Below are positions 3,101 through 37,507 of a DNA stretch of 64,000 nt, one piece after another. The notes below the pieces were generated by a model that was not told where the DNA came from, ran no database searches, and was given only the letters and a program-made list of their open reading frames with translations. How positions within the stretch are numbered: the first letter of the stretch is position 1; the number at the start of each line of letters is the position of its first letter. Source of the stretch: Chloroflexota bacterium (GTDB lineage: Bacteria; Chloroflexota; UBA11872; VXOZ01); the NCBI GenBank assembly GCA_964291655.2, contig OZ219802.1:1856001-1920000 (forward strand). The letters are read 5' to 3'. The position numbers were made by a program, and so were the translations under genes.

Positions 3101-3787
3101 CTACGGCGCGGCGCCGCAGGCTTCCAGGTGGCGGCGGAGGATCTTTTCCGCACGCTGGCGGATAGCGCGCACGGCTTGCGGGCTCACACCCATGCGCGCG
3201 GCGATATCCACCACGCGGCGGTCCTGCCAGTAGATGGCGTAGAGCACGGTTTTCTGCTTCGGCGTGAGCGCCTGCAGGGCTATTTCGAGCTCGGCGTGGA
3301 TGGCCGGTTCCGCCGTGGGCTTGCCTTTGCGCAAGCACTGCTCGGCGAGGTAGGCCGTAATCTCATCGCTGAGCGACTGGTTATGGGCGGGATCCGGCGG
3401 CGCGATGCGCCGGGAGGTGCGGCCGAAGTTGTGCACGCGCCACTTGAGCATGGTGCACATGTAGGCTTCGAAGTTGCCGTTGCGCCGGTAGTCGTACTCG
3501 TAGAGCAGCTCCAGAAAGAGGCGCTGCACCTCCTGGCGGGCGTCTTCAGCTTCCGAAGGCCGGAAGCTCCGCTTCAGACGCCGTATCTGGCGCTCCATGG
3601 GCAGGCGCAAGCGGTCCATGAGCAGCATCTGGGCGGTGGTGTTGCCCTGCTTTGCCGCTTGCACCGTGACGAACAGTTCGTCAGGCAGATTTTGCCCGCG
3701 GCGCGGCTGCGCGGGCGTGGGCTCTTTCGCCACAGGCGCCGCTTTTGCCAACGGCGTCGCATTCACTAAGGGCATTGTCGCTGCCAT
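3101..3787 (-). CDS. Sigma-70 family RNA polymerase sigma factor (regions 2 and 4)
   Basis: Region 2 EDARQEV..YDYRRNGNFEAYM; region 4 ALQALTPKQKTVL..IAARMGVSPQAVR; RBS AAGGAGAGG upstream. Confidence 0.85.
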   Translation of the reverse strand: MAATMPLVNATPLAKAAPVAKEPTPAQPRRGQNLPDELFVTVQAAKQGNTTAQMLLMDRLRLPMERQIRRLKRSFRPSEAEDARQEVQRLFLELLYEYDYRRNGNFEAYMCTMLKWRVHNFGRTSRRIAPPDPAHNQSLSDEITAYLAEQCLRKGKPTAEPAIHAELEIALQALTPKQKTVLYAIYWQDRRVVDIAARMGVSPQAVRAIRQRAEKILRRHLEACGAAP

Positions 3788-4043
3788 TGCTCTTTCCTCT
3801 CCTTCGTTAGCTGGAACGGTTTCTGGTATGTAACGTAGGGTCGTATTGCGTAGGATCGTTTGGTGCAGGGGCGCTGTAGGGGCGCTTCGCGAAGCGCCCC
3901 TACAGCGCCCCTACGGCGTCGGACGTTCATCCACATGTTGGGGATTTTCCCGTTCGTCCTTCGGTCCTTCGACAAGCTCAGGACGAACGGTACGTACCAT
4001 GCGCTCGGGATCCCTTGCTGTCGGCTCATGCTTACGGCTCCCC

Positions 4044-4670
4044 TCATGCGAACACGCGGATCACGCCCACCACCTTGCCGAGAATGGTGATGTTGTCGCC
4101 GGGGAGCGTCGGGTAGTACGGGTTGGCGGGCACGAGGAAGACCTGTCCGCCGTCGCGCTGGAGGTGCTTCAGCGTGGCGGTGCCGTCCTCGCGCAAGGCC
4201 GCCACCATCTCGCCGTTCTCCGCGGCGGGCTGGGGGCGAAGGAGCACGTGGTCGCCGTCGCAGACGCAGGCATCCACCATGCTGTCACCCTGCACGCGCA
4301 GCGCGTAGACGTCCGGGTGACGGGCGAAGACGCTATCCACGGTGAGCCAGTCTTCCACGGCCTCCACCGCTTCCACGCCGGTACCGGCGGCAATCGTGCC
4401 GCGCACCGGCACGCGCGCCACGCCCAAGCCCTCCAGCATCTGGACCTGGGGCGTCAGCTCGTAGCTGCCCCAGGCCGTGCGGCGCAGGTAGCCCTTGGTC
4501 TCCAAGCGCTTCAGGTGGTGGTGCGCCGCCGCCGGTGCGCGCGCGCCGATGCAGCGGGCAATCTCTTCCAAGGTGGGCCAGCGTCCCTCCTGCTGTATGC
4601 GCGTGACAAACGTCAGCACCTGCCGCTGCTTGCCGGTTAGTGGCTTACCCGTCGTATGCGTTTCCTTCAT
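4044..4670 (-). CDS. lexA: LexA-family repressor (wHTH + S24 peptidase)
   Basis: LTGKQRQVL..PTLEEIA wHTH, Ala-Gly cleavage site (IAAG), catalytic Ser (GDSM) and Lys (ATLK), NPYY, GKVVGVIR; ATG 4670 follows an RBS. May be a paralog rather than the host SOS repressor. Confidence 0.88.
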   Translation of the reverse strand: MKETHTTGKPLTGKQRQVLTFVTRIQQEGRWPTLEEIARCIGARAPAAAHHHLKRLETKGYLRRTAWGSYELTPQVQMLEGLGVARVPVRGTIAAGTGVEAVEAVEDWLTVDSVFARHPDVYALRVQGDSMVDACVCDGDHVLLRPQPAAENGEMVAALREDGTATLKHLQRDGGQVFLVPANPYYPTLPGDNITILGKVVGVIRVFA

Positions 4671-4882
4671 GTGCACCTTCCTCTCTGTCGCCAACTATCG
4701 CTAACGAATGAATCTGTCATCGGGTGTCTCCGGTGTGGGAAACCTTTACACAACTCAAGCCGGTAAGTGAGAAGATCCCCTCACCCTAACCCTCTCCCCC
4801 AGGAGAGGGAACCGGAGCCGCTCCATGTTTGCTCGGTTCCGTACTCTGCACTCTCTCCTGGGAGAGAGGAAACCGGAGCGGC

Positions 4883-6481
4883 TCAATGTTTGCTTGGTTC
4901 CGTACTCTGCTCCCTCTCCTGGGGAGGCTGTCTCAATATTTTGGTGCGGGGCACGGTGAATGGGGTGAGAAGGACAGACAGATGGCGGGTGGTATGAACA
5001 AGACGGTGCCAGTGAGAGACTCGTCCCCGGGGCGACGCTGGACTACACCCAGACCGCCACAGGGCGTGGAGGCTCTTGAGATTGAACGCGGTGGCCAGCA
5101 GGTGCCATTCGGACGTCACGTGGCTGCGGCCTCTGAGCAGGAAGCGCCTGGCACTGTGCCACTCCTTGAGCAGGCCAAAGACCGGCTCGACGATGGTACT
5201 CCGGCGGCGGTACACCTGCTTGGCAGGCGCGGTGGCCATCAACTGCCTGTGCCGTTGCAGTATTGGCTCGTAGGCGCTGATCTTTATGGAGCGGCCCCTC
5301 TGGGAGGAGGTGCAGACGCCGAAGGCCGGACAGGTTCTGCAGTCCCGGCCGTTGGCTTGGTACCGCTTGACCCGGTAGCCGTTGCTGTGGGTCAAGCGGT
5401 GCGTGTAGGTGAGCACCTTTTGCTGGGGACACAGGTAGGTGTCGGTCTCTGGACGGTAGGTGAAGTGGTCTTTATGGTAGGGGTTGCGGCGTCTGCGCTC
5501 GTGGGTCGTGGGCATCAATACCGTGTGGCCGCCGGCGTGGCACGTGGCGAGGTTGGCCCCCGAATGGTAGCCGGCGTCCGCAACGGTCACCACGTCCCGC
5601 GCGGCGTCGATGTTCTCCTGCGCCGCCTCGATCAGCGGCGCCAGGTGGGGATGGTCGTCGGCACTGGCGCTCACGTCCACGGCTGTGATCAACCTCCCCC
5701 CTGCGCCCTCGTCCGGGGACGCAAGAGGGGAGACCAGCGCCTGGGCGTTGTAGCCGGTGATGAAGCCACCCATGCCAGTCTTGAGCAGGGCCGCGTCCGC
5801 ATCAGTCAGGTTCGTGTAGCGCGGCCCGTCCTCAGCCGCGACGCGGGCGAGCGCGTCGTCCACCCGCCGCCGCAGGGCCTGGGCATCGGCAAGTTCCTGC
5901 GGCAAAGTCGCTGGCGGCGCGTCGCCCCCCGTGGCGTTCTGCGCCTCCAGGTCCGCGATCGCTTGCTCGGTGCGGGACAACAGCCGCTGCAGCCCCTGCG
6001 CGTCGTGGGTATGCCGCGTCCCGGCGTTGGCCGCGATCCTGGTGCCGTCCACCGCCTGGATTGCCAACTCCACCAGGCCGGCTCGCACCGCCGTGCGCAC
6101 CGTGCGCTTGAGCAGCGTCCGCATCCGGTCGCGGTGCGCCTTGTAGAAGCGCCACAGCGTGTTGTGGTCCGGCTGCTGCATCCCCACCAGCCACAGGTAC
6201 GGTACCTGATCCCGGCAGGCTGCCTCCAGCTTGCGGCTCGAGCGCACGCCGGTCATGAAGCCGTAGACCCATACGCCCAGCAGCGCGCGCGGATGGTAGG
6301 CCCCGGCGCCACGCGGATCGCCTTGCAGGTCAATCTCCATCGCCTCCCAGGCCGCAGCATCGAGGCTGTCCACGAACGCTGCCGCAAACCTGACAGGATG
6401 GTCGTCCGGGATCAGTTCGTCCAGCGTCGGCGGCAACAGCCAGGCCTGTTCACGACTAAACGGTCTCAACGGCATCGTCAC
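4883..6481 (-). CDS. IS1182-family transposase
   Basis: Identical to 1154..2839 up to ..KILRQP, then a different tail. Confidence 0.93.
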   Translation of the reverse strand: MTMPLRPFSREQAWLLPPTLDELIPDDHPVRFAAAFVDSLDAAAWEAMEIDLQGDPRGAGAYHPRALLGVWVYGFMTGVRSSRKLEAACRDQVPYLWLVGMQQPDHNTLWRFYKAHRDRMRTLLKRTVRTAVRAGLVELAIQAVDGTRIAANAGTRHTHDAQGLQRLLSRTEQAIADLEAQNATGGDAPPATLPQELADAQALRRRVDDALARVAAEDGPRYTNLTDADAALLKTGMGGFITGYNAQALVSPLASPDEGAGGRLITAVDVSASADDHPHLAPLIEAAQENIDAARDVVTVADAGYHSGANLATCHAGGHTVLMPTTHERRRRNPYHKDHFTYRPETDTYLCPQQKVLTYTHRLTHSNGYRVKRYQANGRDCRTCPAFGVCTSSQRGRSIKISAYEPILQRHRQLMATAPAKQVYRRRSTIVEPVFGLLKEWHSARRFLLRGRSHVTSEWHLLATAFNLKSLHALWRSGCSPASPRGRVSHWHRLVHTTRHLSVLLTPFTVPRTKILRQPPQEREQSTEPSKH

Positions 6482-6567
6482 TACCTCTCTACAAACTATC
6501 CCACCACCTCACCTTGCTTCTCTTCACACCAGTATATATCCAGTAGATCTATTTTTGAGACACCCTC
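4924..6567 (-). mobile_element. IS1182-family insertion sequence, copy 2 (1644 bp)
   Basis: Near-identical to copy 1, inverted; sits in the hairpin loop; flanks TGGG / TTGG. Confidence 0.93.
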
Positions 6568-7009
6568 TTGGGGAGAGGGCTGGGGTGAGGGCGAATCTTC
6601 ACCGTTCCAGCCCAATTCCGCGTGCTCGTTAGAGTTGCGCAAAGCTCTCCTGAGGGAAAGAGGGTTTTCCTTGCTGCCACAAGGCAAGCCGTAGCGCGGG
6701 GGACAAACCCTCCGCTGCCCCGTGCTCCGACACGGGACAGGCTTGGAGTCAAGGGTAAACACCGTCTTGGCCTAGTCATCGGCAACGGCCACATCATCAT
6801 AAGGTTCCTCTCTGTCGCGCCGCTGCAGCCTGTTCCCCCAGCACAACACCTACCAGTCCTCCCCTGTTCTCGTGCACTGTGGTTCCCTCGACACCACCGT
6901 TCACCCTTCGACAGGCCTGTACTGAGCTTGTCGAAGTGCTCAGGGCGAACGGTGAGCCACGCCATCGGCACCTGCCAGACCTCCCGTGTTCGCGTCCCCT
7001 GCACGGCGT

Positions 7010-7095
7010 TTTTCCCAGTATAGTAAATACTTTGTAAAATTACAACCCCTTTTACCCCTTAATTTTTACATTATTTTTGAATATAACTCTATGCA
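7010..7095. promoter_or_regulatory. AT-rich putative promoter/operator region upstream of the virion module
   Basis: Sharp AT-rich island; palindrome TTGTAA-AA-TTACAA at 7032-7045. Confidence 0.45.
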
Positions 7096-7305
7096 GCCCC
7101 AAAATCACGGGAAACACACTTCCCACTGCCGTCTACCCACTCCCGAAACGCCTGGCAAAGCACGCGCTCCGCGGCGATGTATGCACGCCACACCCTGAGC
7201 GCGCGGCTCTATGGAGAGGAAAAGAGCACGGCCGGGGGTACACAGAAAACCGCACTTTCAACCAAAGCACACGTGCCTTGCCATGACGCAAAGGAAAACA
7301 CCCAG

Positions 7306-7671
7306 GTGACCCAAAACCAGAAGCACGCCAAGAGCCTCTACGCCGATCTCCTCACCGAGCAGGAACTGGCAGCGCTGGAGCGCACCGCCGACAATCCCCT
7401 GCTCCAGGACGAGATTGGCCTGCTGCGCATGCTCATCCGCCGCATCGCAGCCCAGTTGCTCACCGCCGAAGACGATGAACGCGCGCCGGCGGACAAGATC
7501 AAGGCGGTCAAAGACCTGACGGACATCCTCCTCAACGCCCTGAAGGCGCGCCACCAGCTCTCGCCCCGAGCGGAAGACAACCTGACTGAGGCGATGCGTC
7601 AGGTGGTTGCCGAGATCGAATCGCTGGAACGACAGGAAGAGAAAGCGCAGGAACACCACCATGCTGAATGA
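7306..7671 (+). CDS. Putative terminase small subunit-like protein
   Basis: GTG start after AAGGA; helical, with LY..L...LQDEIGLLR..IRR pattern; two genes upstream of TerL. Confidence 0.55.
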   Translation: MTQNQKHAKSLYADLLTEQELAALERTADNPLLQDEIGLLRMLIRRIAAQLLTAEDDERAPADKIKAVKDLTDILLNALKARHQLSPRAEDNLTEAMRQVVAEIESLERQEEKAQEHHHAE

Positions 7672-7903
7672 AACACCGACACAGACGCCCAGGCAGCACG
7701 ACGCGCACTTCCACAAACTGGCAGACGATCTGGACCGGCACGGCTGCGCTTTCGGCCAGGTGACGCGCGAGTTGGCTGAGAACACGCGGGAGGACTATGC
7801 CCGGCTGGAAGCCAAGATCAACATCATCCTGATCGGCATCTTTGCTTCGCCGTTTGCCGCGGCTTTTCTCAACGGCATCCTCCGCAGCGTGCCGGGCCAG
7901 TAG
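7661..7903 (+). CDS. Small coiled-coil protein with C-terminal TM helix (holin/XhlA-like?)
   Basis: 80 aa; YARLEAKIN followed by IILIGIFASPFAAAFL; overlaps the upstream stop. Confidence 0.5.
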   Translation: MLNETPTQTPRQHDAHFHKLADDLDRHGCAFGQVTRELAENTREDYARLEAKINIILIGIFASPFAAAFLNGILRSVPGQ

Positions 7904-7919
7904 AGGCGCACATTCTTAT

Positions 7920-9476
7920 ATGAAGACGAACGTTCAAGCAAAGCAGCGTGAGTGCCGCGAGAGCGGCACATTCGGCCTATCCGAGCCATCTCGCGGAGAA
8001 GAACCGGACTCGCTTGCCCGTACCTTCTTCCGCTACACCCTCAGCGACATTGCCTATTTTTCCCGTGTGCTCGTGGGGCGGCCTTTGCGGTCCTACCAGT
8101 TGGCGGTGGCACGGGCGGTGCTTGCGAGTGTGCGGCAACGTGAAGGGGCAATCTTCACCGTAGAGATGGCGCGGCAGATGGGGAAGAACGAGCTATCCGC
8201 TCATCTGGAAGCCTACCTGTTGTATCGCCATCAACAGCGCGGCGGCACTATCGTCAAATGCGCGCCCACGCTCAGCCCCCAGACCCTTGTCTCCCGCCTG
8301 CGCCTTGAATCCGTGCTGGACCGTCCCTGGCTGGCGCCCTATTGGCAGCGCGCCCACGGCTACATGGTCGCGGTCGGCAAGGCGCGGGTGATGTTCCTCT
8401 CAGCCCACGAGCAGTCCAATGTCGTCGGCGCGACTGCCGATCTGCTGCTGGAAGTCGACGAAGCTCAGGACGTGGACGAGGAGAAATTCGCCAAAGAATT
8501 CCTGCCCATGGCGACGGCGCAGAATGCCACCATCGTGCTCTACGGCACGCCCTGGACGCAAGACACGCTCCTCGCCAAGTACAAGGCGCTGAACCTCGCG
8601 CATGAAGAAAACACCGGCGAGCGGCGGCACTTCTCGTTTCCGTGGCAGGTGGGCGCGCGGGAAAATCCGCGCTACGGCGCGGCGGTTAAGGCGCAGATTC
8701 GCCAGCGCGGGGAGGACGACCTGGTCATCCGCACCCAGTACTGCCTGGAGGAAGTGGACGACGCCACGGGCTTTTTCACCCCGCCGCTGCAGGCGGCCCT
8801 GCAAGGCACGCACGCGCGACAGCAGCAACCGCAGGCGGATGCGCATTACGTGGCAGCCGTGGACGTGGCCGGCGAGGATGCTGTTGGGGCAAATCAACAA
8901 GGCCGTCAGTCGCGGCGCGACAGCACGGTGGTCTTGATCGGCGAGCGAATCTGGCGGCACGACCCGGTGTTGGGGTTCGCCCTGCCCGCGGTCAACGTGG
9001 TGAATGCCTACCAGTGGACCGGCCTGCCCACCACCGAGCAGTACGCCCGCCTCGTGCGCTTGCTCGGTGAAGAGTGGCGGGTGCAACGGGCAATGACTGA
9101 CGCCACCGGCATCGGAGATGCACTGGCGCGTTTCTTGCAAGCGCGGCTGGGTGAGGACCGCATCGAGCCGTTTACGTTTACGGCGCAATCTAAGAGCGCC
9201 TTGGGCTACGACCTGCGCACCCTCGCCGGCAGCGGACGCCTGCAACTCTGGGCGGATGACGGCTCGGCGGAATACCGGGAGTGCTGGCATCAGGTGCGAC
9301 GCTGCCAATTGGCGCTGCATCCCGGCAACCGGATTGGATTCCATGTACCCGCCGGTCAGGGGCACGACGACTACGTGTCGGCCTTGGCACTGCTCACGCG
9401 CACGGTTGAGGCCGGCGCGCCACCTGCCGTATCGGTCGCGCTGCCGCCGGAAGAGAGGGAGACGGAGGGGTATTGA
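7920..9476 (+). CDS. Terminase large subunit
   Basis: Q motif LRSYQ, Walker A MARQMGKNE, Walker B LLEVDEAQ, motif III YGTP, RNase H-fold nuclease VAAVDVAG..DST..DATGIG..HDDYVSA; start uncertain. Confidence 0.88.
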   Translation: MKTNVQAKQRECRESGTFGLSEPSRGEEPDSLARTFFRYTLSDIAYFSRVLVGRPLRSYQLAVARAVLASVRQREGAIFTVEMARQMGKNELSAHLEAYLLYRHQQRGGTIVKCAPTLSPQTLVSRLRLESVLDRPWLAPYWQRAHGYMVAVGKARVMFLSAHEQSNVVGATADLLLEVDEAQDVDEEKFAKEFLPMATAQNATIVLYGTPWTQDTLLAKYKALNLAHEENTGERRHFSFPWQVGARENPRYGAAVKAQIRQRGEDDLVIRTQYCLEEVDDATGFFTPPLQAALQGTHARQQQPQADAHYVAAVDVAGEDAVGANQQGRQSRRDSTVVLIGERIWRHDPVLGFALPAVNVVNAYQWTGLPTTEQYARLVRLLGEEWRVQRAMTDATGIGDALARFLQARLGEDRIEPFTFTAQSKSALGYDLRTLAGSGRLQLWADDGSAEYRECWHQVRRCQLALHPGNRIGFHVPAGQGHDDYVSALALLTRTVEAGAPPAVSVALPPEERETEGY

Positions 9477-9512
9477 TGTGGGATTTGGGTCCTGTCCCAA
9501 TCAACCACGGCA

Positions 9513-9934
9513 GATTGGCGACCCCCGGGCGCAGGTTGCAAACCTGCGCTACCGGTCCGTCACTCCGGCGAAAGCCGGAGTCCAGTCAGAGGCGGGACGG
9601 AAGGATCGTAGCGCGGAGGCATGCCTCCCGCTTGGAGACCGGGGACGCAGGTTGCAAACCTGCGCTACCGGTCCGTCACTCCGGCGAAAGCCGGAGTCCA
9701 GGGGGGAGGCGGGACGGAAGGATCGTAGCGCGGGGGCATGCCTCCCGCTTGGCGACCGGGGACGCAGGTTGCAAACCTGCGCTACCGGTCCGTCACTCCG
9801 GCGAAAGCCGGAGTCCAGGGGGAGGCGGGGTGGAAGGATCGTAGCGCGGGGGCATGCCTCCCGCTTGGCGACCCCGGACGCAGGTTGCAGACCAGCGCTA
9901 CCGGTTCGTCACTCCGGCGAAAGCCGGAGTCCAG
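9513..9934. repeat. Tandem BIME-like array, ~116-117 bp unit x ~3.6
   Basis: GCAGGTTGCA(A/G)ACC recurs at 9531, 9647, 9764, 9880; each unit also has GTCACTCCGGCGAAAGCCGGAGTCC, and the first three a GTAGCGCGG REP. Confidence 0.9.
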
Positions 9935-10213
9935 AGGGACGGCCGACGTGAAGCGATAACGCTTGTTCCTTGAATGAGAGGCACTGTTGAAGCAGAGAAG
10001 ATGGATTCCGGCTTGCGCCGGAATGACGGAACTGGCGGCTCCTCGGGGAGTAGCGCGGGGGCTTGTCCCCCGCAGTGGGTCGGGGGTGTGTAGAACGAAG
10101 AAAAGATGGATTCCGGCTTTCGCCGGAATGACGGGCAAGAGCGACTTTCGTAAGTAGACAGAATTCGTACGTGAATCGAATTTGTACATGAATCGAAATA
10201 GAAAGCGAGCACG

Positions 10214-11452: not shown

Positions 11453-11846
11453 AAGGATGCGGGAGCGGCCTACCGAACTTAAGTTTGGCAGCTTACTGCT
11501 CGATTTAAGGGAATCTTATCCGTCACTCCCGCGAAAGCGGGAGTCCATCGGGTCTGCACGGATGGATTGCCGCTCCGTTTCGAATGCGTGGCAACGTTCC
11601 CGGGCAATTGATGTGCCAGGCAGCCGCGGACGCAGGTTGCAAACCTGCGCTACCGGTCCGTCACTCCGGCGAATGCCGGAGTCCAGGGAGGCTGGGTGGA
11701 TGGATTCCTACATTTGCGAAAATGGCGAATCGCAAGAAGATCCCATAGCGTCACAGTCGTGCAAAGTGGACAGGACCGTACCGCAGAGAATCCCCCTCAC
11801 CCCGGCCCTTTCCCTCGAGGGAGAAGGTGGTTCCGAGCGGATTCAG

Positions 11847-12437: not shown

Positions 12438-12564
12438 TGTACCAATTGGCAGGATCACGGCCACGGACGAGAGCAGAGTTGTGATCTCTTCCCTCATTGA
12501 CAATCGCGTGCAAACGGGAATCCGTCTTCGTCGCCCGCCACGGCCAGGAAGAGGAACAACGCCA

Positions 12565-13420: not shown

Positions 13421-13493
13421 GGATTTGCAGCCGCCACTTAGAGGGACTGGCATCCGGCACAGGCCGGCAGGCAAAAGGCCCCCCTCTCCCTGG

Positions 13494-15187: not shown

Positions 15188-15239
15188 CACCAGGTACGCA
15201 GGTCTAAGAAATAGCTCTCATTGAAAGGAGCAAGATGCA

Positions 15240-17234: not shown

Positions 17235-17480
17235 GGTGTTTGCGCGCCAGGAGGCGATTTGAGGGCTGGATCGACGCCAGTTTCCCCTCACACCGGCCCT
17301 CTTCCCAGGGAAAGAGAGTCTTTTGCGCCCGTCGGCCTGGGTTGTGCGGAGGCCTCCCTAGGGAGAGGGAGGCCTCTTTCGGCTGGCGTTCCAGGACGAG
17401 TTGAGGTCTCCCCAGGGAGAGGGAGCAGAAAGCGAAACCGAGTGAATGTGAAGCCGCTCCGGTTCCCTCTCCTGGGGGAG

Positions 17481-18745
17481 TGTACAGACCGGGGACATAG
17501 GTAACAGATGTTCGGGTAGATAGGTTACACATTTTGTGCTCTGAGGTCTATGGTTTTTACTCTTTGGATCGAGAAGTACACGTCCCAGACACCGTCCGTT
17601 CGGGTGGGTCGCAGGGCGACTTGCTTGTGCGTGAAGGCCCTGCCCACACGGAGCCGTCTGCCTTGGAAGGAGATGCGGCCGGAGACATCGACGCTGCGTA
17701 CGCGGTCGTCGGGAGCGTAGGCGAGGGCAGGCAAGGTCTCTGGGAAAGGGCGAGGACTAGGCGTGTATCTGGTAATGGGAGTGTCGAGATCGAGGGCATG
17801 GTGTGGGCGTTCCAAGTTGTAGAAGTGGCGCCAGGTGTCAAAGGCGCGCTGGCAATGGTCCAGGTCGGTAAAGGTGGTCCCTGCCAGCAGTTCGCTCTTG
17901 AGGGAGCGGTGGAAGCGTTCCAGCTTGCCGAGTGTCTGGGGATGGTAGGGTCGGCTGTGCAGGACGTTGATGCCCAGCTGCATGAGCCAGACGGTGAGGG
18001 GCGTGAAGGGCTGGGCACTGTCGTTACCCCAGGGAGAGCCGTTGTCCATGAGCATGGCCTGGGGCAAGCCGTAGCGGCGAAAGACAGCGGTGAGGCGGTC
18101 TTGGACCGTCTCTCCCCGCTCGTTGGCACAGGCCTGTAACCCGAGGTTGAAGCGGGAGTGATCGTCTAGGAGGGTGAGAGGATGACAGCGGTTCTGCTGC
18201 ATGACGAAATGTCCCTTGAAGTCCATCTGCCACAGCTCGTTGGGCTGGGGTCGTTCGAAGCGCACATGGGGCGTGTGCTTGGCGCTCTGGGCTGGATCGA
18301 TGAGCCCATGGCGTTTGAGAATGGCATTGATGGTGCTCTTGGCCGGCACGTCGGTGACCCCCTGGTCCTGCAGCATCCGGCGCAGCACGTGTGCGCCTTT
18401 CTTCGGATGCGCCAGGCGCAAGGCGATGATGCGCTCCTCCAGCGCCGGGCGCGTGCGGTGCGGACACGTGTGCGGCCGCCGCGACCGGTCGTGCAAACCG
18501 TCTTCGCCAGCTTTCGCATACCGCTCCAGCGTCTTGTACGCCGTCTTGCGACTGATCTCCAGACGGCGACACAGCTCGCTGATGTTGGCCCCTTCCATCA
18601 GTGCCAGTGCAATGAACTCCTTGCGTTCAGACACAACCGTACTCTCCTTCCAAGGCATGGCGCTCCTCCATCTGTAAGAATCTCCATGCCTTAAGGTGTA
18701 ACCTATGTGCCCGAACATGTGTAACCCATGTACCCGGTCTATACA
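17481..18745 (-). mobile_element. IS481-family insertion sequence, copy A (1265 bp)
   Basis: TGT...ACA ends with ~50 bp imperfect IRs; GGGAG duplicated; inserted in the GGAGAGGG arm of the hairpin. Confidence 0.92.
17525..18658 (-). CDS. IS481-family transposase
   Basis: MPWKE start with GGAGGAG RBS; HTH; WQMDFKG, LDDHSR, MDNG, HPQTLGKLERFH, YNLERPH. Confidence 0.93.
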   Translation of the reverse strand: MPWKESTVVSERKEFIALALMEGANISELCRRLEISRKTAYKTLERYAKAGEDGLHDRSRRPHTCPHRTRPALEERIIALRLAHPKKGAHVLRRMLQDQGVTDVPAKSTINAILKRHGLIDPAQSAKHTPHVRFERPQPNELWQMDFKGHFVMQQNRCHPLTLLDDHSRFNLGLQACANERGETVQDRLTAVFRRYGLPQAMLMDNGSPWGNDSAQPFTPLTVWLMQLGINVLHSRPYHPQTLGKLERFHRSLKSELLAGTTFTDLDHCQRAFDTWRHFYNLERPHHALDLDTPITRYTPSPRPFPETLPALAYAPDDRVRSVDVSGRISFQGRRLRVGRAFTHKQVALRPTRTDGVWDVYFSIQRVKTIDLRAQNV

Positions 18746-18971
18746 GGGAGAGGGCTAGGGTGAGGGGAAATCTCCCGCATCCGGCCCCGTTGCACCGGCT
18801 TGGCATGGGCACACATCGGACTGGAAGTCCGCGCCTGCCCTTTTACCCGATACGGGGGTCTCCCGGTAGGGGCACGACATGTCGTGCCTCTACCCCGCGC
18901 CGGTTGCGGTGAAGAGCGTCGAGCTTCGCTATGACGAGCATCACAGTAGTTTTTTCACATGAGGATTGCGT

Positions 18972-19622
18972 ATGACATTGAGCGACTTTCGCAGCTCGTT
19001 GCGTAACGAGTTGTTCGATCCGGCGGACAGCAAGCCGCGATTCAGCGATGCGGACCTGGACCACGCCATTGACCGCGCCCTGACAGAGCTTTCGCGAGTT
19101 GTGCCTTGGACGCGTGACGCGACGCTGACCACCAGTCCGGACTCGCGTTTGGTTGACCTCGGCAGCCTGTCGGATGTGTGGAGCGTGGAAGAGGTGGAGT
19201 GGCCCACGGGCGCCTACCCGCCGGAGCACTGCACCTTCATGGTGCTGCCGACCAGTGCGGGCACGCCGGGCTTCGTCTTTCTCCTCGTGCCGGAAGCGCC
19301 GAGTGCCGTGGACCCGGTGCGCGTGCGCTGGGGCACGAAGCACGTGGCGAGTGACAGCATGTGGTCGCTGCCGGAATCCTACACCGGCTTGCTGACAACC
19401 GGCGCGTACGCCCACGCGTGCCTGGCTTTCGCCACGCCCAAGTCTGAAAACTTCCGCTATCAGGACGGCCAGCAGGGCGCGGGCGTGGATACGAGCATGG
19501 TGAGCGGGTCGTGGTGGGAGAAAGGCACATCCGCCCGTGACAGATTTGAGCAGGAGCTCGACGCGCTGCGCCAGGAGCGGGCGCAGCAGGTCCGGGGCAG
19601 CGTGGCGTGGTCGGTGGATTAA
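18972..19622 (+). CDS. Putative head-tail adaptor (connector)
   Basis: MTLSDFRSSLRNELFD..RFSDADLDHAIDRAL helical start typical of adaptors; follows the capsid gene. Confidence 0.65.
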   Translation: MTLSDFRSSLRNELFDPADSKPRFSDADLDHAIDRALTELSRVVPWTRDATLTTSPDSRLVDLGSLSDVWSVEEVEWPTGAYPPEHCTFMVLPTSAGTPGFVFLLVPEAPSAVDPVRVRWGTKHVASDSMWSLPESYTGLLTTGAYAHACLAFATPKSENFRYQDGQQGAGVDTSMVSGSWWEKGTSARDRFEQELDALRQERAQQVRGSVAWSVD

Positions 19623-19748
19623 GCCGATCTGGCGGGCAGATCACGGTGATTGGTCAACTTGCTCACACCGGCTTGGGGTGGACTCAGCGTACTGCGTTGC
19701 GCGAGGGTCTGTGCTCACATAGCCCTGGTCAGTGCGTTGTCAGGGAAG

Positions 19749-20064
19749 ACCTGGATTCCGGCCTGCGCCGGAATGACGGACCTAGGGCTGTAGCGCGGGG
19801 GCTTGTCCTCCGCCTCGGGCGCTGAGCCTACGCAAAGCAGAAGAACTGGATTCCGGCCTGCGCCGGAATGACGGACCCAATGTCGTAGCGCGGGGGCTTG
19901 TCCCACGCCTCGGGCGCTGAGCTTACGCAAAGCAGAAGAACTGGATTCCGGCCTGCGCCGGCATGACGGACCTAGGGCTGTAGCGCGGGGGCTTGTCCCC
20001 CGCCTCGGGCGCTGAGCTTACGCAAATTAGAAGAACTGGATTCCGGCGGACGCCGGAATGACGG
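19749..20064. repeat. Tandem BIME-like array, 95 bp unit x ~3.3
   Basis: CTGGATTCCGGC at 19751, 19846, 19941, 20036, alternating with GTAGCGCGGGGGCTTGTCC. Confidence 0.9.
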
Positions 20065-20153
20065 ATCGCGCCGCTTGGACGGATTGCGCCGTTCGAACAG
20101 AGATGGCGGCGCGATCTGCAAACTTCGGCACGGAGAACCGACGGAGATTAACT

Positions 20154-20525
20154 ATGCTCGATAGGAAGCAGATCGAACAGGTAGCGGCGAACCGGGAGCG
20201 GATCCGGCAAGGGCGGCTGCGCACGGTCACACTGATCCGCACCAGCAGCGGCGCCACCACCTACGCCGCGGCACAGTGCACCTGGAAAGAGGAGCACAGC
20301 ACCGCTTCCGGCGCGGCAAATCAGTTACGCCGCAGCAGCAGCGGGCCTGACGTTTCAGCAGAGTTCGGCGCGGATGCCGACCTTTCCACTGTTGTGGCCA
20401 TTGCCGACACGCCGGATCGCGCGCAGGTGGCCGGCGCACGCAAGTATCGTGTGCTGGAACACCTGAGTCTAGGGTTGACCGGTACACCAAACCGCATTCT
20501 CGTCAAGCTTGTAGAGATAAGGTAA
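20154..20525 (+). CDS. Putative head-closure (stopper) protein
   Basis: 123 aa, beta-rich, RTVTLIR..KYRVLE; position after the adaptor; RBS GGAG. Confidence 0.5.
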   Translation: MLDRKQIEQVAANRERIRQGRLRTVTLIRTSSGATTYAAAQCTWKEEHSTASGAANQLRRSSSGPDVSAEFGADADLSTVVAIADTPDRAQVAGARKYRVLEHLSLGLTGTPNRILVKLVEIR

Positions 20526-20530
20526 AGCCC

Positions 20531-20938
20531 ATGCCAACCGTCGGTGAAGATTGCTCCGTGATTCTGGATGGAAACGGTTATTTCGTAAAGCCCGGTTCAT
20601 ATCGTATTGAGGTGCCAAAGATCATGGCAGCCGAGCCGGATGCCGCCGCCGGGCCGGCGGCAGTCAATCTGGGGGCGGGCAAACAAGTGTGGCATTTCAC
20701 CGCGCTTGCCTACACCAACCACCTCAACCACAACGGCACGGTGAATACCACAACCGCCGATTCCTACCGCGCAAACTTGCGGGCTACCCACGCGAAGTCC
20801 GAGGCGCTCTCGTTCACCGACCGCCTCGGAACCGCGCATACCGTGCACGTGCTCACGCTGGAGGAGCGGATTGCGGAAGCTGCGGGGTTTTGGGAGCAGC
20901 CGGAGTGGGAGATTGCGGTAACGCTGGTGGAGGCGTGA
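20531..20938 (+). CDS. Putative tail/baseplate protein (Dit- or tube-like), paralog 1
   Basis: Beta-rich 135 aa; ends WEIAVTLVEA; similar to 21379..21816. Confidence 0.5.
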   Translation: MPTVGEDCSVILDGNGYFVKPGSYRIEVPKIMAAEPDAAAGPAAVNLGAGKQVWHFTALAYTNHLNHNGTVNTTTADSYRANLRATHAKSEALSFTDRLGTAHTVHVLTLEERIAEAAGFWEQPEWEIAVTLVEA

Positions 20939-21029
20939 TAGGCGAAGGACGATCGGCGGCAACTTACCGATCGCCTTTGCCGTACCGGGCCGCACACCGG
21001 AGATACGCACGAGGATCACCCGTCATTCG

Positions 21030-21258
21030 TGTATGTGTTGAGTAATTCGCTGACAAAACTTCTACTCACTGGACTGTGTCGAACGTACATGTCATTCCGA
21101 GCGAAGCGAGGAATCTAGAGTGCTGAGGCCGTGAAAGTGCGTTGAGCAGGGACCCTAGATTCCGCGAACAGTGTTCGACGCTGCGCTCGGTATGACATGC
21201 ACCGACAACTCTTCAGAATGGAGAGCGAATTCTGTCAACCAATTACTCAACACTTACA
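21030..21258. mobile_element. MITE with TGTAAGTGTTGAGTAATT..TTGACAGAA-type ends and REP cargo
   Basis: ~30 bp IRs; internal GTCATTCCGAGCG..GGAATCTAG REP pair; relatives at 36636, 37508, 47959. Confidence 0.7.
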
Positions 21259-21378
21259 GGAATGACAGTCGGCCGCTATCGCACCCATGTACATGAATGA
21301 TCTGCACAGACTGTTGCCGGATGCCCTGGGGCTTGCACGCTGCCAGGCAACAGCCACGAGGAAGGGAGAACATACCAC

Positions 21379-21816
21379 ATGCCAGCCATTGGGGTGGACT
21401 GCAACGTGACGCTCGCGAACGCCAGCATAAACGACGGCGCGCCGGTGGGATTCTATATAAAGCCCGGTACGTACACCATGACTCGACCCCGCCGCGCGCA
21501 GGCGCGTGAAACAGCGGGCGGCACGCTTTCTTACGTCGAAAGCGGCCTGGCGAAGCGCGAGTTTGGCTTCACGGTCCTCTGCCGCAGTAACATTCGCAAC
21601 CTGGACGGCACGACGAACGCAACCAAGGCGCGGCAGTGGCGCGACCGGCTCTGGGAATTCTACGAACGCCTGAACGAAAACCATACGTTCGTCGATCCGC
21701 TGGAAGATAGCTATGCAGTGCGCTTTGCCGCCTGCGAAGATCGGGTGATCCCCTTTGGCAAAGAGCAGTTGTGGGTGCTGGAGTGGGAGACCCGCGTCGT
21801 GTTGCAGGAGGTCTAG
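21379..21816 (+). CDS. Putative tail/baseplate protein (Dit- or tube-like), paralog 2
   Basis: MPAIGVDCNVTL..FYIKPGTY; FVDP; ends WETRVVLQEV; RBS GGGAG. Confidence 0.5.
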   Translation: MPAIGVDCNVTLANASINDGAPVGFYIKPGTYTMTRPRRAQARETAGGTLSYVESGLAKREFGFTVLCRSNIRNLDGTTNATKARQWRDRLWEFYERLNENHTFVDPLEDSYAVRFAACEDRVIPFGKEQLWVLEWETRVVLQEV

Positions 21817-22042
21817 CACCATTGTCCCGACGGATTCTTACCTTGTCCGTTCGCCCTGAGCCTGTCGAAGTGCAAGTCTAACAGAGCGATGTATGTACGA
21901 GACAAGTCCTAGGCTCCGAGCTTGTGCTCTCCCCCGCAGCAGACTCTTGGATTGCGCAGCCAGGTCAGGCGACGAGACGCCCTCTCCCAGGGGACCTTTA
22001 AGGGCCCCACCTGAAGGCGAGAAGTCTCCCTCTCCCTGGGGA

Positions 22043-22330
22043 TGTACAGACCGGGGACATAGGTAACAGTTGTTCGGGGACATGGGTTACACATTTTACT
22101 GATTGACACCTACGAGAGCATTGGGTTGGTCCGGGTTTGATAAGAGACTGGCGACACAGTGCACTCACTTTCCGCCTGTCAGCTTGTGCCAGAGAAACAA
22201 ACAGTGTGCATAAGGATATTGAGTGGATCTAACTTTCAAGGCAAGGACATCGCATACTACGAAAACCCCCTCGTTCTATGGTGTTACCTATGAGCCCGAA
22301 CAACTGTTACCCATGTCCCCGGTCTATACA
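22043..22330. mobile_element. Non-autonomous IS481-type MITE (288 bp)
   Basis: Ends TGTACAGACCGGGGACATAGGTAAC / GTTACCCATGTCCCCGGTCTATACA match IS481 copies A/B; no transposase; flanks GGGGA / GGGCA in the hairpin. Confidence 0.8.
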
Positions 22331-22391
22331 GGGCAGAGGGTTGGGGTGAGGGGAAACATCAGAGCAAAGCTATATTTGAAGGGAATTACCG

Positions 22392-24353
22392 ATGGCGCGT
22401 ACGTTGACTAAGACTCTCGCCGCGGCGGTAGACGCGCCGTCCCGGCAACCGGCCATGCAGTTTACGATGCGGGATGCGGCGCACCACTACGCGCTCTTTC
22501 GTTCCGATCCGCGCCCGGCCGCCGCCAACGCCTGTTTCGTGGATACGAGCGGCGCGCTCTGGCGCGTGGACGTTTCTACGGAACGGGGCGTCGTCGCCGC
22601 CACCGTTTCGTATCAGCGCATCACGGATCCCAGCCAGGAGAGCCAATGGGCTGCTTGGACTCCCTTACAGACACGCGCCACCGGGGCTGCGGGCGTAGCG
22701 GCGGGTGTCCTGCCGAACGGCGACGTGATGGTGGTCTACGTGACGTTCACCACCGTCTACCGCCGGACGAGCAGCGACGGCGGGACCACGTGGGAAGCCC
22801 CGGAGACGCTGTGGAATCCGCGAAAGATCGTGCGCGCGCTGTGTTACGGCGGCAACGGCAGCATATTCGTGGCGGCAGATAAGTCCGGCGGCGGTGTGAC
22901 GGTCTACCGGCTCAACGAATCCGACGGGAGTTGGCAGGCGGATGAATGGACCCATGGCACGTATTCGGCATGCGGGGGCATCGGCGGCGTATGGGACGGC
23001 ACGGCCTGGCATCTGGCGCTTTCGCTATGGGGCGGCGTGCCCGGCACCACGGGTACCTCTATTGTGGGCTGCCGCACCGACGGCGCGACGTGGGAGTCGC
23101 TGACGCCTATCGCGCGAGTGGATGACAGCACATCGCGGCGCAACCTGCTCAGTCCCACGGTCGAACAGTGGGAGCAGGAGTTTCGCGTGGCGTTCCTGGA
23201 ACGGGACCACGGCATCGTCTCGGGCCTCAATTTTGGGCGCTGGCGTTACTGCACGGCGCACACCTGGGGCATCTTCAGCGAAGCGACGCCGGTGGAAGAC
23301 GAATCCTTTGCCGGGTTCTGGTGGCTGCGGCAAGATGCCTCCCACTACTGGCTGTTGAACCAAGAGATCGCTCACCAATACGGCGGCTACGCGGCCACGA
23401 ATGCGGACCAGAATCTCGACGTGACGGCGCGTGTGCTGGACTTCAGGTGGGAAGAGGAAGCCAACGAAACCAGCAATGCGCGATTGCTCTTGGAAAATGC
23501 CGACCACGCGCTCGATAGCCGGCTTGGCAAGACGCTTCAGGCTGGCGCGACGCTGGACGTGCATTCCGGGTACGTGACGGGCAGCGGCGTCGAAACAGCG
23601 CCAATGGCGGAGCTTGTCGTGCAAGACATCACAATCCTGCCGGATAGCACGGTGCGGGTCGACGCTGCCGACGCGAGCGTGCACGCGCGCCGCCGCGTTG
23701 CGCAGACGTGGGCCTACAGCGGGCGGACCGTGCGCGCATTGCTCGCCGAGGCATGGTACCGCGCCGGCGCGCTGCGCATGACCGACGACGGCGATAGCCG
23801 CTTCGATCGGGTTCTGCCCGCTTTCGCCCTGCATGCCGGTCAAGCCTGGCAGACGATGCTGGACCGTCTCACCGCGCTGGACGGTCTCCAGTGGCGGATA
23901 GAAGCGGACGGCACCGTGCATTGCGGTTTTCCAGGCACGGACCAGACGGCTTGGACGTATGCCGGCTGGGAGTTTGTGGGCGAATGGCAGCAGCGCAACG
24001 GGGCTAACCACGTGCTGGTGCAGGGCACAGGTGTGCTGGGCGAGGCCTGGGACTGGGACGCGGTCCGTACACTCGGCAGCGCGCAAACGACGCTCGTCAC
24101 CGACAGTCAACTCACGCAGGCCGTTGATTGTCAAAACCGGGCGGAAGCCGTGCTCGCCGAGGCCCGCCGCGACAGCAAAGCCTACACCGTGGACGTGCCC
24201 TATAATTCGGCGCTCCAAATCGGTGACGTGATTGACTTTCAAACACCGGGCTTCGCCTATGGCAAGCTGCGCATCGCCCGCATCAGCCACCGTTTCACAC
24301 CGCACGAGGCGGAGTTCACGATGTCGCTGCAGTGCGGCGAATTAGAAGAGTAG
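22392..24353 (+). CDS. Putative baseplate hub/tail protein with N-terminal BNR (Asp-box) beta-propeller
   Basis: Asp-box SSDGGTTW; Trp/Gly-rich propeller-like half; C-terminal hub-like LDVTARV..ARLLLEN..NHVLVQG..LQIGDVI..RIARISH. Confidence 0.6.
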   Translation: MARTLTKTLAAAVDAPSRQPAMQFTMRDAAHHYALFRSDPRPAAANACFVDTSGALWRVDVSTERGVVAATVSYQRITDPSQESQWAAWTPLQTRATGAAGVAAGVLPNGDVMVVYVTFTTVYRRTSSDGGTTWEAPETLWNPRKIVRALCYGGNGSIFVAADKSGGGVTVYRLNESDGSWQADEWTHGTYSACGGIGGVWDGTAWHLALSLWGGVPGTTGTSIVGCRTDGATWESLTPIARVDDSTSRRNLLSPTVEQWEQEFRVAFLERDHGIVSGLNFGRWRYCTAHTWGIFSEATPVEDESFAGFWWLRQDASHYWLLNQEIAHQYGGYAATNADQNLDVTARVLDFRWEEEANETSNARLLLENADHALDSRLGKTLQAGATLDVHSGYVTGSGVETAPMAELVVQDITILPDSTVRVDAADASVHARRRVAQTWAYSGRTVRALLAEAWYRAGALRMTDDGDSRFDRVLPAFALHAGQAWQTMLDRLTALDGLQWRIEADGTVHCGFPGTDQTAWTYAGWEFVGEWQQRNGANHVLVQGTGVLGEAWDWDAVRTLGSAQTTLVTDSQLTQAVDCQNRAEAVLAEARRDSKAYTVDVPYNSALQIGDVIDFQTPGFAYGKLRIARISHRFTPHEAEFTMSLQCGELEE

Positions 24354-24370
24354 GCTGTGTTGAATCCACC

Positions 24371-25196
24371 TACCGGTAGGGGCGGTTCGCGAACCGCCCC
24401 TACTACAACCCCACGCAGGGGAGAACCCGATGCCCTACGCTCCGTGTTCGTCATACAGGCGCAGAGTCTGGCCCGAACCCGACTCAGTAATCATATGCGA
24501 CTGTAGCGCGGGGGCTTGTCCCCCGCATCCCTCCTTACAGTGACCCGGCAAACTGGTGTCAGGTACAGAAGGCCTGTGCGCGCTACGCGAACAACCGGTG
24601 CAGGTTGGCCTCGTCAGGAATGCAGACGTGGACAAGGGTACAGTTACTATCCGGTAGCGCAGGTTTGCAACCTGCGGCCCGGCAAAATCCATACCCATGC
24701 ACGCAAGAATCCATCCACCGTAGGGGCGGTTCGCGAACCGCCCCTACTACATCCCACGCAAGGGAGAACCCAAAGTGCTACGCTCCGTGTTCGTCATCCG
24801 GGCGCAGAGTCTGCCTCGAACCCGATTCAGGGCGGTTTGTGAACCGCCTCTACGTCTCAATCCGGCAGCGCAGGCCCTTCGACAAAACCTGTACTGAACT
24901 TGTCGAAGGGCTCATGACACGTTTGCACCCTGCGGCCTGGCAAAATCCATACCCATGCACGCAAGAATCTATCCACCGGTAGGGGCGGTTCGCGAACCGC
25001 CTCTACTGCATCCCACGCAAGGGAGAACCCGATGCCCTACGCTCCGTGCTCGTCATCCAGGCGCAGAGTCTGCCCCGATCCCGACTCAGGGCGGTTCGCG
25101 AACCGCCTCTACTGCATCCCACGCAGGGGAGAACCCGATGCTATACGCTCCGTGCTCGTCATCCAGGCGCAGAGTCTGCCCCGAACCCGATTCAGC
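24371..25196. repeat. REP/BIME array with four ~110 bp units
   Basis: GGGCGGTTCGCGAACCGCC..TAC followed by GGAGAACCC..TACGCTCCGTG..GCGCAGAGTCTG, near 24376, 24720, 24979, 25089. Confidence 0.85.
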
Positions 25197-25405
25197 GTAC
25201 CGAGACGGTGCTGGGCCGCAGCCCAGAGCTTGCCTACGGCGAGCACAGCGAATTGTGCGCTGCAGCCCTACTCGCGCGCTGTTGCGCGGCACATCAGCAA
25301 ATTAGATCGGTCTCACATAGGAATAACTTCGCCAGGAAAAGCCACACCGGTAGCTGCGTGAAGTCAACAGATATACGGTCCACCATTTGTAGAAAGGGGC
25401 AATCC

Positions 25406-25654
25406 ATGCCACAGCGAGCAGAAACGAGAGGCATCACACCCGGGTCCGCCTTGAGCGGCGTACTGCGGGCATTCGACGCGACGAACTGGCAGGCGGACGT
25501 ACAACTGACCGGCTCATTCCCCACGATTCTCACAGGCATCGCAGTAAATCGGGGGCTGGACGCCTCCGCAATCACCGTGGGCCAGCGCTGCATCGTCGTC
25601 TTCAACGACCTGCAGAACCCCAACGACGCCGTGCTCGTGGCGGTATATGTCTAG
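25406..25654 (+). CDS. Small OB-fold spike/baseplate-like protein (gpV N-terminal-like)
   Basis: GVLRAFDATNWQADVQL..VGQRCIVVF..PNDAVLVAV; RBS GAAAGGGG; follows the hub gene. Confidence 0.55.
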   Translation: MPQRAETRGITPGSALSGVLRAFDATNWQADVQLTGSFPTILTGIAVNRGLDASAITVGQRCIVVFNDLQNPNDAVLVAVYV

Positions 25655-37464: not shown

Positions 37465-37507
37465 CTATGTGTCCTTGCTGCGTTATCTTCCAGCTTTCCG
37501 TCATTCC

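Follow-up and report, generated by a model that had tools for sequence, protein, structure and literature searches.

Only a small number of gene transfer agents (GTAs), from a handful of lineages, have been characterized experimentally. The Rhodobacter capsulatus GTA (RcGTA) is encoded by a structural cluster of ∼14–15 kb that keeps phage order from terminase to hub and lacks replication and integration genes; it is inherited vertically under purifying selection, some lineages have lost it or carry it in degraded form, and in some hosts its parts occupy more than one locus. PBSX, a fixed phage-derived particle of Bacillus, is conserved in its host group, linked to the SOS response, and packages host DNA. 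Here we describe a cluster of eleven phage-derived particle genes, with lexA and a sigma gene beside it, at positions 3101–25654 of a 64,000-nucleotide stretch from a Chloroflexota bacterium (OZ219802.1, 1,856,001–1,920,000; the whole stretch is hereafter called the window). On balance, we favor the view that the cluster belongs to a set of phage-derived particle genes long fixed in Chloroflexota chromosomes and is a candidate GTA, not a prophage. A search of titles and abstracts, with supplements outside its scope, found no published description of a Chloroflexota GTA, and we found no literature on phage-like particles in Ktedonobacter.

Like RcGTA, the Chloroflexota set comprises a structural cluster of similar size in phage order, terminase to hub, and is vertical, under purifying selection, without replication or integration genes, broken in some lineages and dispersed in others. 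It differs from RcGTA in its fused protease-capsid protein, its propeller-bearing hub, its lack of a tape measure, major tube protein and chaperones, and its phylum. No RcGTA-related family appeared among the Pfam and PHROG matches; the one link is at the level of fold (a tube protein against 6toa_G), and the set does not belong to the homologous RcGTA-type family. No counterpart of the contractile tail, lysis genes and dedicated repressor of PBSX was found in the cluster, where lexA is the host's. Among 50,697 phage records, the capsid fusion was best matched by Microcystis phage Mae-JY22 (30.5% identity over 96%), and its capsid half is 32% identical to 933W-type Stx phages, whereas TerL matched only 6 of the records, at 30.9% identity or less. 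The protease-capsid fusions of Mae-JY22 and the Stx phages are homologous to that of the cluster, but these phages are complete, with replication, tape measure and lysis genes. Mae-JY22 was considered as a model for the ancestral tail and set aside: of 23 genes tested against cluster profiles, the capsid alone matched.

The Cluster Encodes a Phage-Type Head and DNA-Packaging Machinery

The window has a G+C content of 62%, and long spurious open reading frames (ORFs) are therefore abundant. We chose genes by third-position GC, family matches and conservation, and measured selection as the ratio of nonsynonymous to synonymous substitution rates (dN/dS; median pairwise value, Nei–Gojobori method, 13 genomes). 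All eleven particle genes lie on the + strand and every frame is open, in agreement with an initial annotation of the stretch. In the following list, fold assignments come from AlphaFold 2 (AF2) models searched with Foldseek.

7177–7671, + strand: g7177, helical protein in the small-terminase position; TerS-like by position only
7607–7903, + strand: g7607, 98 residues with a single C-terminal hydrophobic helix; dN/dS 0.32
7842–9476 (ORF; conserved core from ∼7986), + strand: TerL, large terminase; dN/dS 0.14
10214–11452, + strand: portal (phrog_10963, E = 5e-39); dN/dS 0.07
15240–17234, + strand: fusion of head maturation protease, scaffold and HK97-type major capsid protein (PF25209, E = 1e-45); dN/dS 0.14
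18972–19622, + strand: head-to-tail adaptor (PF24175, SU10_adaptor, E = 3e-6); dN/dS 0.13
20154–20525, + strand: g20058, putative neck protein (stopper or closure) by position; dN/dS 0.24
20531–20938, + strand: tube-fold protein 1 (g20531), by AF2 and Foldseek; dN/dS 0.18
21379–21816, + strand: tube-fold protein 2 (g21379), a paralog of g20531 (32–33% identical); dN/dS 0.16
22392–24353, + strand: tail hub, 653 residues, by AF2 and Foldseek; dN/dS 0.16
25406–25654, + strand: small cap or spike candidate after the hub, ∼82 residues, a lead only; dN/dS 0.14

Phage-like head and DNA-packaging genes (TerL, portal and capsid) thus lie in the host chromosome, as is characteristic of GTAs. TerL gave a weak match in PHROG (E = 3e-7), and a profile search of the PDB returned the nuclease domain of a Thermus phage TerL alone (E = 1e-3). 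Its motif columns GKN, LLLEVDEA, YGT, VDVAG, DATG and HDD do not vary among 13 sequences, and four dispersed copies retain them, which bears out the earlier observation that the ATPase and nuclease motifs are intact. The true start of TerL is downstream of the ORF start, and stop codons precede the conserved core in two genomes of the genus (G004 and G005). The portal is 89–99% identical within the genus. The protease-capsid fusion also matched phrog_4523 (E = 2e-70) and, through its protease, phrog_15531 (E = 3e-8). The ATG start codon and Shine-Dalgarno sequence of the adaptor gene are conserved.

Three of the smaller genes have no assigned family. The first, g7177, is kept in 12 of 12 fetched genomes of the genus (dN/dS 0.23) and has no Pfam or PHROG match; in Atlas it matched Chloroflexota hypotheticals only, with TerS families scoring below 0.9 (leads only). 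The second, g7607, also without a match in Pfam or PHROG, is conserved across the genus and in family f2 of the same class; it is a putative small membrane protein, for which the holin-like role given in the initial annotation is conjectural. The true start of the third, g20058, is at ∼20154, with a conserved core from ORF residue 33; homologs are present in family f5, the Thermoflexus group and Ktedonobacteria, and no Pfam or PHROG family, including among 35 homologs searched against Pfam, and no PDB sequence match was found. Sequence-profile searches of the PDB with the tube paralogs, g20058 and the cap returned nothing meaningful.

At the 3′ end of the cluster, the initial annotation had named a final OB-fold spike gene. 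The gene is real, but the N-terminal 120 residues of ORF 25046–25654 show no conservation and were rejected as coding; the gene occupies 25406–25654 only, and its role as a spike is a lead. ORFs 11226–12407, 12427–13512, 24516–24842 and 26024–26347 were likewise rejected, their translations being low-complexity junk. The two spurious ORFs that could be measured gave dN/dS values of 1.03 and 0.95, indicating neutral evolution.

The GC content of the cluster is that of the host, and ordinary host genes flank it on both sides, as had been noted before:

120–794, − strand: eda, left of the block
27084–28220, − strand: class-V aminotransferase gene, right of the block

The rest of the window holds housekeeping genes, among them genes for fatty-acid oxidation, gamma-glutamyltranspeptidase, pheS/pheT and a P-type ATPase. 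Pfam and PHROG scans of all ORFs from eda to the aminotransferase gene gave no match to integrase, excisionase, replication, own-repressor or lysin families, no att repeat was found in a repeat analysis of the window, and the window contains no tRNA; the earlier report that integrase, att repeat, replication gene and endolysin are missing therefore stands. Without a replication, integration or lysogeny module the locus cannot propagate itself, a property that it has in common with GTAs.

The Cluster Is Inherited Vertically under Purifying Selection

In the genus, all 16 other genomes carry one capsid homolog each, 82–97% identical to that of the window (in two pieces in G013). The order sigma gene, lexA and then the eleven particle genes was the same in 10 of 10 fetched genomes, and G013 is collinear; in G008 the head half matches, and the tail half, beyond the capsid gene and close to a contig end, is inverted. 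In six of the ten genomes eda lies beyond the sigma gene, and in six the aminotransferase gene lies beyond the last particle gene. In G004, G005 and G007 (loci L017, L020 and L030) the aminotransferase gene adjoins the sigma gene instead, which points to local rearrangement around the cluster. Host genes abut the cluster in relatives free of insertion sequences (ISs). Homologs are thus single-copy, syntenic and at one locus throughout the genus, not confined to sporadic complete prophages, the outcome that the initial annotation had set against its own proposal.

The dN/dS values of the eleven genes range from 0.07 to 0.32, compared with 0.09–0.18 for the host flanks (eda, sigma, lexA and the aminotransferase gene). 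TerL, capsid, adaptor, tube genes, hub and cap fall at 0.13–0.18, and g7177, g20058 and g7607 at 0.23–0.32. These values are far below 1 and near those of the flanks, dS in the cluster is of the same order as in the flanks, and the neutral evolution that had been named as a possible objection was not seen. Protein distances in the cluster and the flanks are correlated (r = 0.70), with the cluster evolving ∼1.7 times faster; none of 5,000 permutations gave a correlation as high, a figure that overstates the support because cluster and flanks are linked and the genomes are related to one another. The pattern is that of vertical inheritance at a fixed locus under purifying selection, as in GTAs, judged against linked flanks and a portal phylogeny.

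Dispersed and Scrambled Forms of the Gene Set Recur across Chloroflexota

Within the same class, the capsid gene was found in the single genome of family f2, in 6 of 6 genomes of f5 and in 3 of 6 of f3. The f2 locus is collinear with the window cluster from g7177 through a tube gene. In f5 the set is split over three loci among housekeeping genes. Portal and capsid genes stand by themselves between two groups of genes, one of mutL, Uma2 and ankyrin genes and one of DUF433, fakA-like, valS and anthranilate synthase genes; TerL is separated from them by 1.7 Mb in G020 and, in four genomes, stands alone at a locus of 4.4 kb; and a third locus, 30–180 kb from the capsid gene, comprises the adaptor gene, the neck gene and a single tube gene. 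The motif columns of the f5 TerL are unchanged, and omega between two f5 genomes is 0.13–0.22 for six genes, the lone TerL included.

A scan with the portal alignment, taking one genome per species, gave 167 confirmed relatives, including portals from Thermoflexus hugenholtzii, Thermogemmatispora, Ktedonobacter, Ktedonospora and Tengunoibacter. Among the best 80 of the 167, 78 titles name Chloroflexota taxa and 2 read "uncultured bacterium". Gene order in Ktedonobacteria is scrambled, typically with the portal and neck genes on the + strand followed, kilobases later, by tube, adaptor, cap homolog and capsid genes on the − strand. One intact TerL was present in 5 of 5 cultured Ktedonobacteria searched, apart from the portal in the four with a readable distance. 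On the assumption that contig numbers match the named records, TerL and portal are ∼0.38–0.39 Mb apart in two Thermogemmatispora, ∼14 kb in Tengunoibacter and ∼0.84 Mb in Ktedonobacter sp. SOSP1-85; in Ktedonospora the two lie on different contigs. Omega between two Thermogemmatispora species is 0.08–0.23 for six genes, again including the lone TerL. The Ktedonobacteria proteins also have parts of their own: at loci L087–L133 the adaptor is enlarged by an insert of ∼170 residues, and the cap homolog has an extra beta-rich C-terminal domain of ∼120 residues, both absent in the window genus.

To gauge distribution over the phylum, we used an even sample of 301 Chloroflexota genomes and a portal cut-off of E ≤ 1e-40. 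A close portal was found in 61 genomes, always as exactly one match, and the positive families are nearly full (f1, 9/9; f25, 20/23; f18, 3/3); G075, flagged as unpublished, is one of the 61 positives and one of the three f18 genomes. In a FastTree phylogeny of 65 portals, the genus, f5, the Thermoflexus group and Ktedonobacteria each formed one starred clade; the length filter left out 16 of 81 rows, five of them from Thermogemmatispora. The recurrence across Chloroflexota proposed in the initial annotation is therefore real, and it extends to dispersed or scrambled forms under purifying selection.

Single copy number, family-wide presence, co-divergence with the flanks and selection in three lineages all argue for a domesticated machine and against a prophage or satellite, as do the break-up of gene order, invasion by host repeats and the lack of a propagation module. 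Synteny, dN/dS and recurrence across Chloroflexota thus support the initial annotation in its central point, a host-maintained, domesticated virion module, and we regard domestication by the host, as opposed to carriage of a prophage, as highly likely.

Predicted Folds Suggest a Head, a Neck and a Very Short Tail

We modeled the hub from 55 sequences taken from 260 representatives found in 1.84 billion proteins. The AF2 model has a predicted local distance difference test (pLDDT) score of 90.7. Its C-terminal 320 residues adopt a gp27/Mu gp44/VgrG-type fold (Foldseek E = 1e-17 to 1e-13 against hubs of contractile injection systems, phage Mu and type VI secretion systems), and its N-terminal half is a sialidase-like beta-propeller of the bacterial neuraminidase repeat (BNR) type (E ∼4e-10 to neuraminidases). 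The propeller has one Asp-box, in which S127, D129, G131, T133 and W134 are invariant. The cluster hub thus has its C-terminal fold in common with gp27, Mu gp44 and VgrG, but adds a propeller and has no sheath or baseplate wedge genes alongside.

The model of g20531 (pLDDT 84.6) has a tail-tube fold. In Foldseek it comes closest to tube-initiator or Dit-like chains of baseplates (E = 3.5e-5), followed lower down by lambda gpV, SPP1 Dit and the RcGTA neck chain 6toa_G (E = 8e-3). The two tail paralogs and the hub that had been read from the sequence were in this way confirmed as folds, with the tube fold resting on the g20531 model.

For the last gene, Atlas gave a lead to Phage_base_V (baseplate protein V; 0.92). 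A complex prediction of the cap with the C-terminal half of the hub scored 0.44, compared with 0.00 for the best of three controls, which is weak support. Of 80 solved complexes, 58 reached the mark used, as did 2 of 110 mismatched pairs; at scores of 0.60 or below it was reached by only 7 of the 80 solved complexes and by both of the passing mismatches. The cap–hub runs share at least 81% of their contacts, with partner pLDDT of at least 79. It is possible, from these models, that the small last gene encodes an OB-fold spike or cap.

Together, the genes imply a particle with a head, a neck and a very short tail. TerL and the portal would fill a protease-matured, HK97-type head with DNA, and the adaptor and neck protein would close it. 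A stub tail without a tape measure would consist of the hub, the cap and one or two rings of tube-fold protein, and the hub propeller would attach to a glycan on the cell surface. Retention of TerL even where it stands alone argues that DNA packaging is the selected activity, and since a locus lacking replication, integration and lysogeny genes cannot spread itself, the cargo is most likely host DNA, as in a GTA. We think that a DNA-packaging particle is probably still made in most carriers; that it transfers DNA between cells, as a true GTA, is a proposal we hold tentatively, at somewhat less than even weight.

The Adjacent lexA Is the Host SOS Repressor

Two genes adjoin the TerS end of the cluster in 12 of 12 fetched genomes of the genus, and the initial annotation had assigned both to the element:

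3101–3787, − strand: sigma-70 family gene, downstream of lexA (Sigma70_r4_2, E = 3.5e-9; PHROG sigma factor families, E = 5e-12); dN/dS 0.18
4044–4694, − strand: lexA, divergent from the particle genes (Peptidase_S24, E = 1e-25; LexA_DNA_bind, E = 1e-14)

The search for lexA gave one match in the whole genome; as the sole copy, it is the host SOS repressor and not a regulator of the element. The claim that the cluster has its own LexA accordingly fails, and the adjacency was seen only in this genus: neither lexA nor the sigma gene was found beside homologous particle genes in f2, in f5 or at 66 loci outside the genus. The claim of an own sigma factor holds as far as the presence of the gene is concerned, whereas its link to the cluster is one of position. 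The window sigma gene has one ortholog in 15 of 16 genomes of the genus (85–100% identical) and is missing from one 69%-complete genome; the relatives in f5 and f2 are only 35–41% identical. From its position, it is possible that the sigma gene regulates the cluster, and SOS control through the shared lexA promoter region and the neighboring sigma gene is a guess on the same ground.

An alignment of the lexA/g7177 intergenic region showed only short, loosely conserved palindromes and defined no operator. Scanning 6580–26000 gave 3 promoter-like sites compared with 3.1 expected and 13 terminator-like sites compared with 14.4 expected, and no shared promoter motif was evident upstream of the cluster genes. 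Six genes have a conserved start codon and Shine-Dalgarno sequence; the rest of the spacers is variable repeat DNA.

Sigma genes were also seen beside TerL outside the genus. In Thermogemmatispora aurantia a sigma-70 gene with regions 2 and 4 (L152:3433–4173, +) is divergent from the lone TerL (L152:1480–3294, −), T. tikiterensis has an 89% identical copy in the same place (L153:3431–4174), and a partial sigma match (42%) lies at the end of the TerL locus of Ktedonobacter SOSP1-85. With a BLASTP E of 0.014, the Thermogemmatispora gene is at most a possible ortholog of the window sigma gene; the genus sigma profile finds nothing outside the genus.

Insertion Sequences and Host Repeats Fill the Spacers

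The initial annotation had overlooked the load of ISs, of a miniature inverted-repeat transposable element (MITE) and of repeats in the window copy:

1056–2723: DDE_Tnp_1_6 IS, third copy, 1668 bp, outside the lexA–cap interval
4912–6579, − strand: IS with DDE_Tnp_1_6 transposase, 1668 bp, in the lexA/g7177 spacer
9518–10135: host repeat array of four 116-bp units and hairpin repeats, in the TerL–portal spacer
11453–13481: repeat-filled non-coding spacer with spurious ORFs (dN/dS 1.03); 221-nt tandem repeats at 12495–13351
13482–15149, + strand: second copy of the DDE IS, 1668 bp, 91 bp upstream of the capsid gene
17481–18745, − strand: IS481-like element (rve, E = 4.5e-17; LZ_Tnp_IS481), in the capsid–adaptor spacer
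22043–22330: MITE, 288 bp, made of IS481-like ends, between tube-fold protein 2 and the hub

The DDE copy at 4912–6579 is 100% identical to that at 13482–15149 and 99% identical to that at 1056–2723, and the IS481-like element has a second, 99% identical copy at 28924–30188. Genome-wide there are 25 copies of the DDE IS (99.6–100% identical) and 24 of the IS481-like element; the MITE, recognized by inverted repeats I16 and I20, has 45 near-full copies. Every IS and MITE insertion in the cluster is intergenic, and G008, the nearest relative (capsid 97% identical), has no IS in the lexA/g7177 or portal/capsid spacers. With three recent ISs and one MITE in its spacers, expression of the window copy may be impaired. 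The two IS families are expanding in the genome, at sites that include 50013–51299. IS ends adjoin repeats of the GAGAGGG/GGGGTGAGGGG type, suggesting insertion into repeat elements.

Tandem or dispersed short repeats occupy 9518–10135, 11619–11729, 12495–13351, 19740–20065, 21061–21267 and 24377–25218. Those in the spacers have 56–161 BLAST hits each in the genome (107 for the unit of 9518–10135), and the portal–capsid spacer varies from 736 to 2,030 bp among genomes of the genus. After removal of the ISs and MITE, the cluster measures ∼15.3 kb and is ∼63% coding, as computed from coordinates, which is unlike a phage. Hairpin-forming repeat families have units of ∼95, 116 and 221 nt and cores such as CGCAGGTTGCAAACCTGCG and GGATTCCGGC...GCCGGAATGACGG; they occur at 9518–9943, 12495–13351, 19740–20065, 33972–34823 and 36635–37760, number ∼100 genomic occurrences, and reach very high depth in metagenome contigs. 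The stretch 15150–25000 is matched exactly, in pieces, by contigs of two sequencing runs, and contigs of two further runs, one labeled sponge metagenome, are ∼96% identical over the capsid and hub genes; the contigs of these four runs broke at the repeats.

Alternative Explanations

A number of results weigh against a candidate GTA. Distribution is patchy: 240 of the 301 genomes lack a close portal, including all those of the same-class families f4 (0/6) and f6 (0/19), and f12 (0/20), f16 (0/18) and f15 (0/15) are negative too. The tail tip of hub and cap, which bears on delivery, is present in the window genus and was not found in f5 or f2 with genus and wide profiles, which returned weak BNR-propeller matches only; the core common to the lineages is therefore head and neck, and the case for delivery to cells is weakened. 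No solved model matched a stub tail of such make-up. The Pfam and PHROG scans recognized no lysis gene, tape measure, major tube, sheath or fiber. A GAAC-N4-GTTC LexA box occurs in none of 14 lexA/g7177 intergenic sequences, and no RNA run is listed among the runs holding the stretch. From lexA to the last gene, the window copy has three ISs in 21 kb, compared with ∼0.3 expected from 49 copies in 3.47 Mb. Broken genes were found in 4 of 15 genus copies (14 loci and the window), the other 11 being whole: in G007, TerL and hub are frameshifted and the capsid gene has a TAA; in G006, a TAG interrupts the hub and the adaptor is frameshifted; and the capsid gene of G013 and tube gene 1 of G005 each have a frameshift. 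The window copy may be on the same path of decay. The overstatement in the permutation figure counts on this side as well.

The decayed copies, together with the three ISs, the MITE and the many repeats of the window copy, the lack of recognized tail-shaft and lysis genes and the lack of a listed RNA run, are what would be expected of an inert ancient prophage remnant in slow decay, kept by chance or by linkage to lexA. We consider such a remnant improbable: dN/dS is 0.07–0.32 across 13 genomes compared with ∼1 for spurious frames, most genus copies are fully intact, two further lineages have intact dispersed copies under selection, and six genes keep their Shine-Dalgarno sequences and start codons. 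Moreover, lineage omega (computed for 7 pairs, with pairs involving G000 left out) is 0.12 over the intact genes of G007 against its sister G004, so the breaks in G007 are recent. An active or recent mobile element, either a temperate phage whose attachment site is fixed or a satellite that forms its own capsids and uses helper tails, is very improbable. Head and neck genes with few tail genes do resemble such satellites, and the IS481-like element carries an rve integrase-core domain, but the protein bearing it is simply the transposase of a multi-copy IS. Searches found no phage integrase, excisionase, replication gene, own repressor, att repeat or tRNA; host genes abut the cluster in IS-free relatives; and each genome has one copy that co-diverges with its flanks, with the f5 genes on loci up to 1.7 Mb apart. 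What marks a prophage (integrase and att site, repressor switch, replication, lysis, sporadic distribution) was not found, and the missing integrase and replication genes and the vertical single-copy pattern equally set the cluster apart from satellites of the capsid-forming phage-inducible chromosomal island (cf-PICI) type.

The set could instead be domesticated and kept by the host for another purpose, such as PBSX-like killing, release or protection of DNA (extracellular DNA, spore or filament biology), or phage decoy or defense. Conservation shows usefulness, not use; the core in common with f5 has no recognized tail tip, a glycan-enzyme-like propeller on the hub would suit cell binding or attack, and the Pfam and PHROG scans found no lysis genes. 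Against this, the ATPase and nuclease motifs of TerL are kept under purifying selection even where the gene stands alone, pointing to DNA packaging, and the contractile tail and lysis genes of a PBSX-type killing particle were not found in the cluster. We regard another purpose as unlikely, though it deserves serious consideration. Returning to the candidate GTA, its most detailed version is possible but clearly doubtful: an ancient GTA of independent origin in Chloroflexota, predating the split between this class and Ktedonobacteria, with a fused protease-capsid head, a stub tail lacking a tape measure, a hub with a glycan-binding propeller and genes scattered in some lineages, and brought in this genus under the SOS regulator through the shared lexA promoter and an SOS-co-transcribed sigma gene.

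Significance for Chloroflexota

A single-copy, vertically inherited particle gene set in about one-fifth of the sampled Chloroflexota would represent a new and independent case of phage domestication. Its carriers include nearly all sampled members of a family that is apparently Ktedonobacteraceae, and relatives of the window organism occur in runs labeled sponge metagenome. The compact and dispersed forms in sister lineages constitute a natural series for the loss of phage gene order after domestication. Several carriers (Thermogemmatispora, Ktedonobacter, Tengunoibacter and Thermoflexus) are in culture, which opens the hypothesis to bench work. For Chloroflexota of soils, hot springs and sponges, such a set could be one of the main routes by which genes are exchanged.

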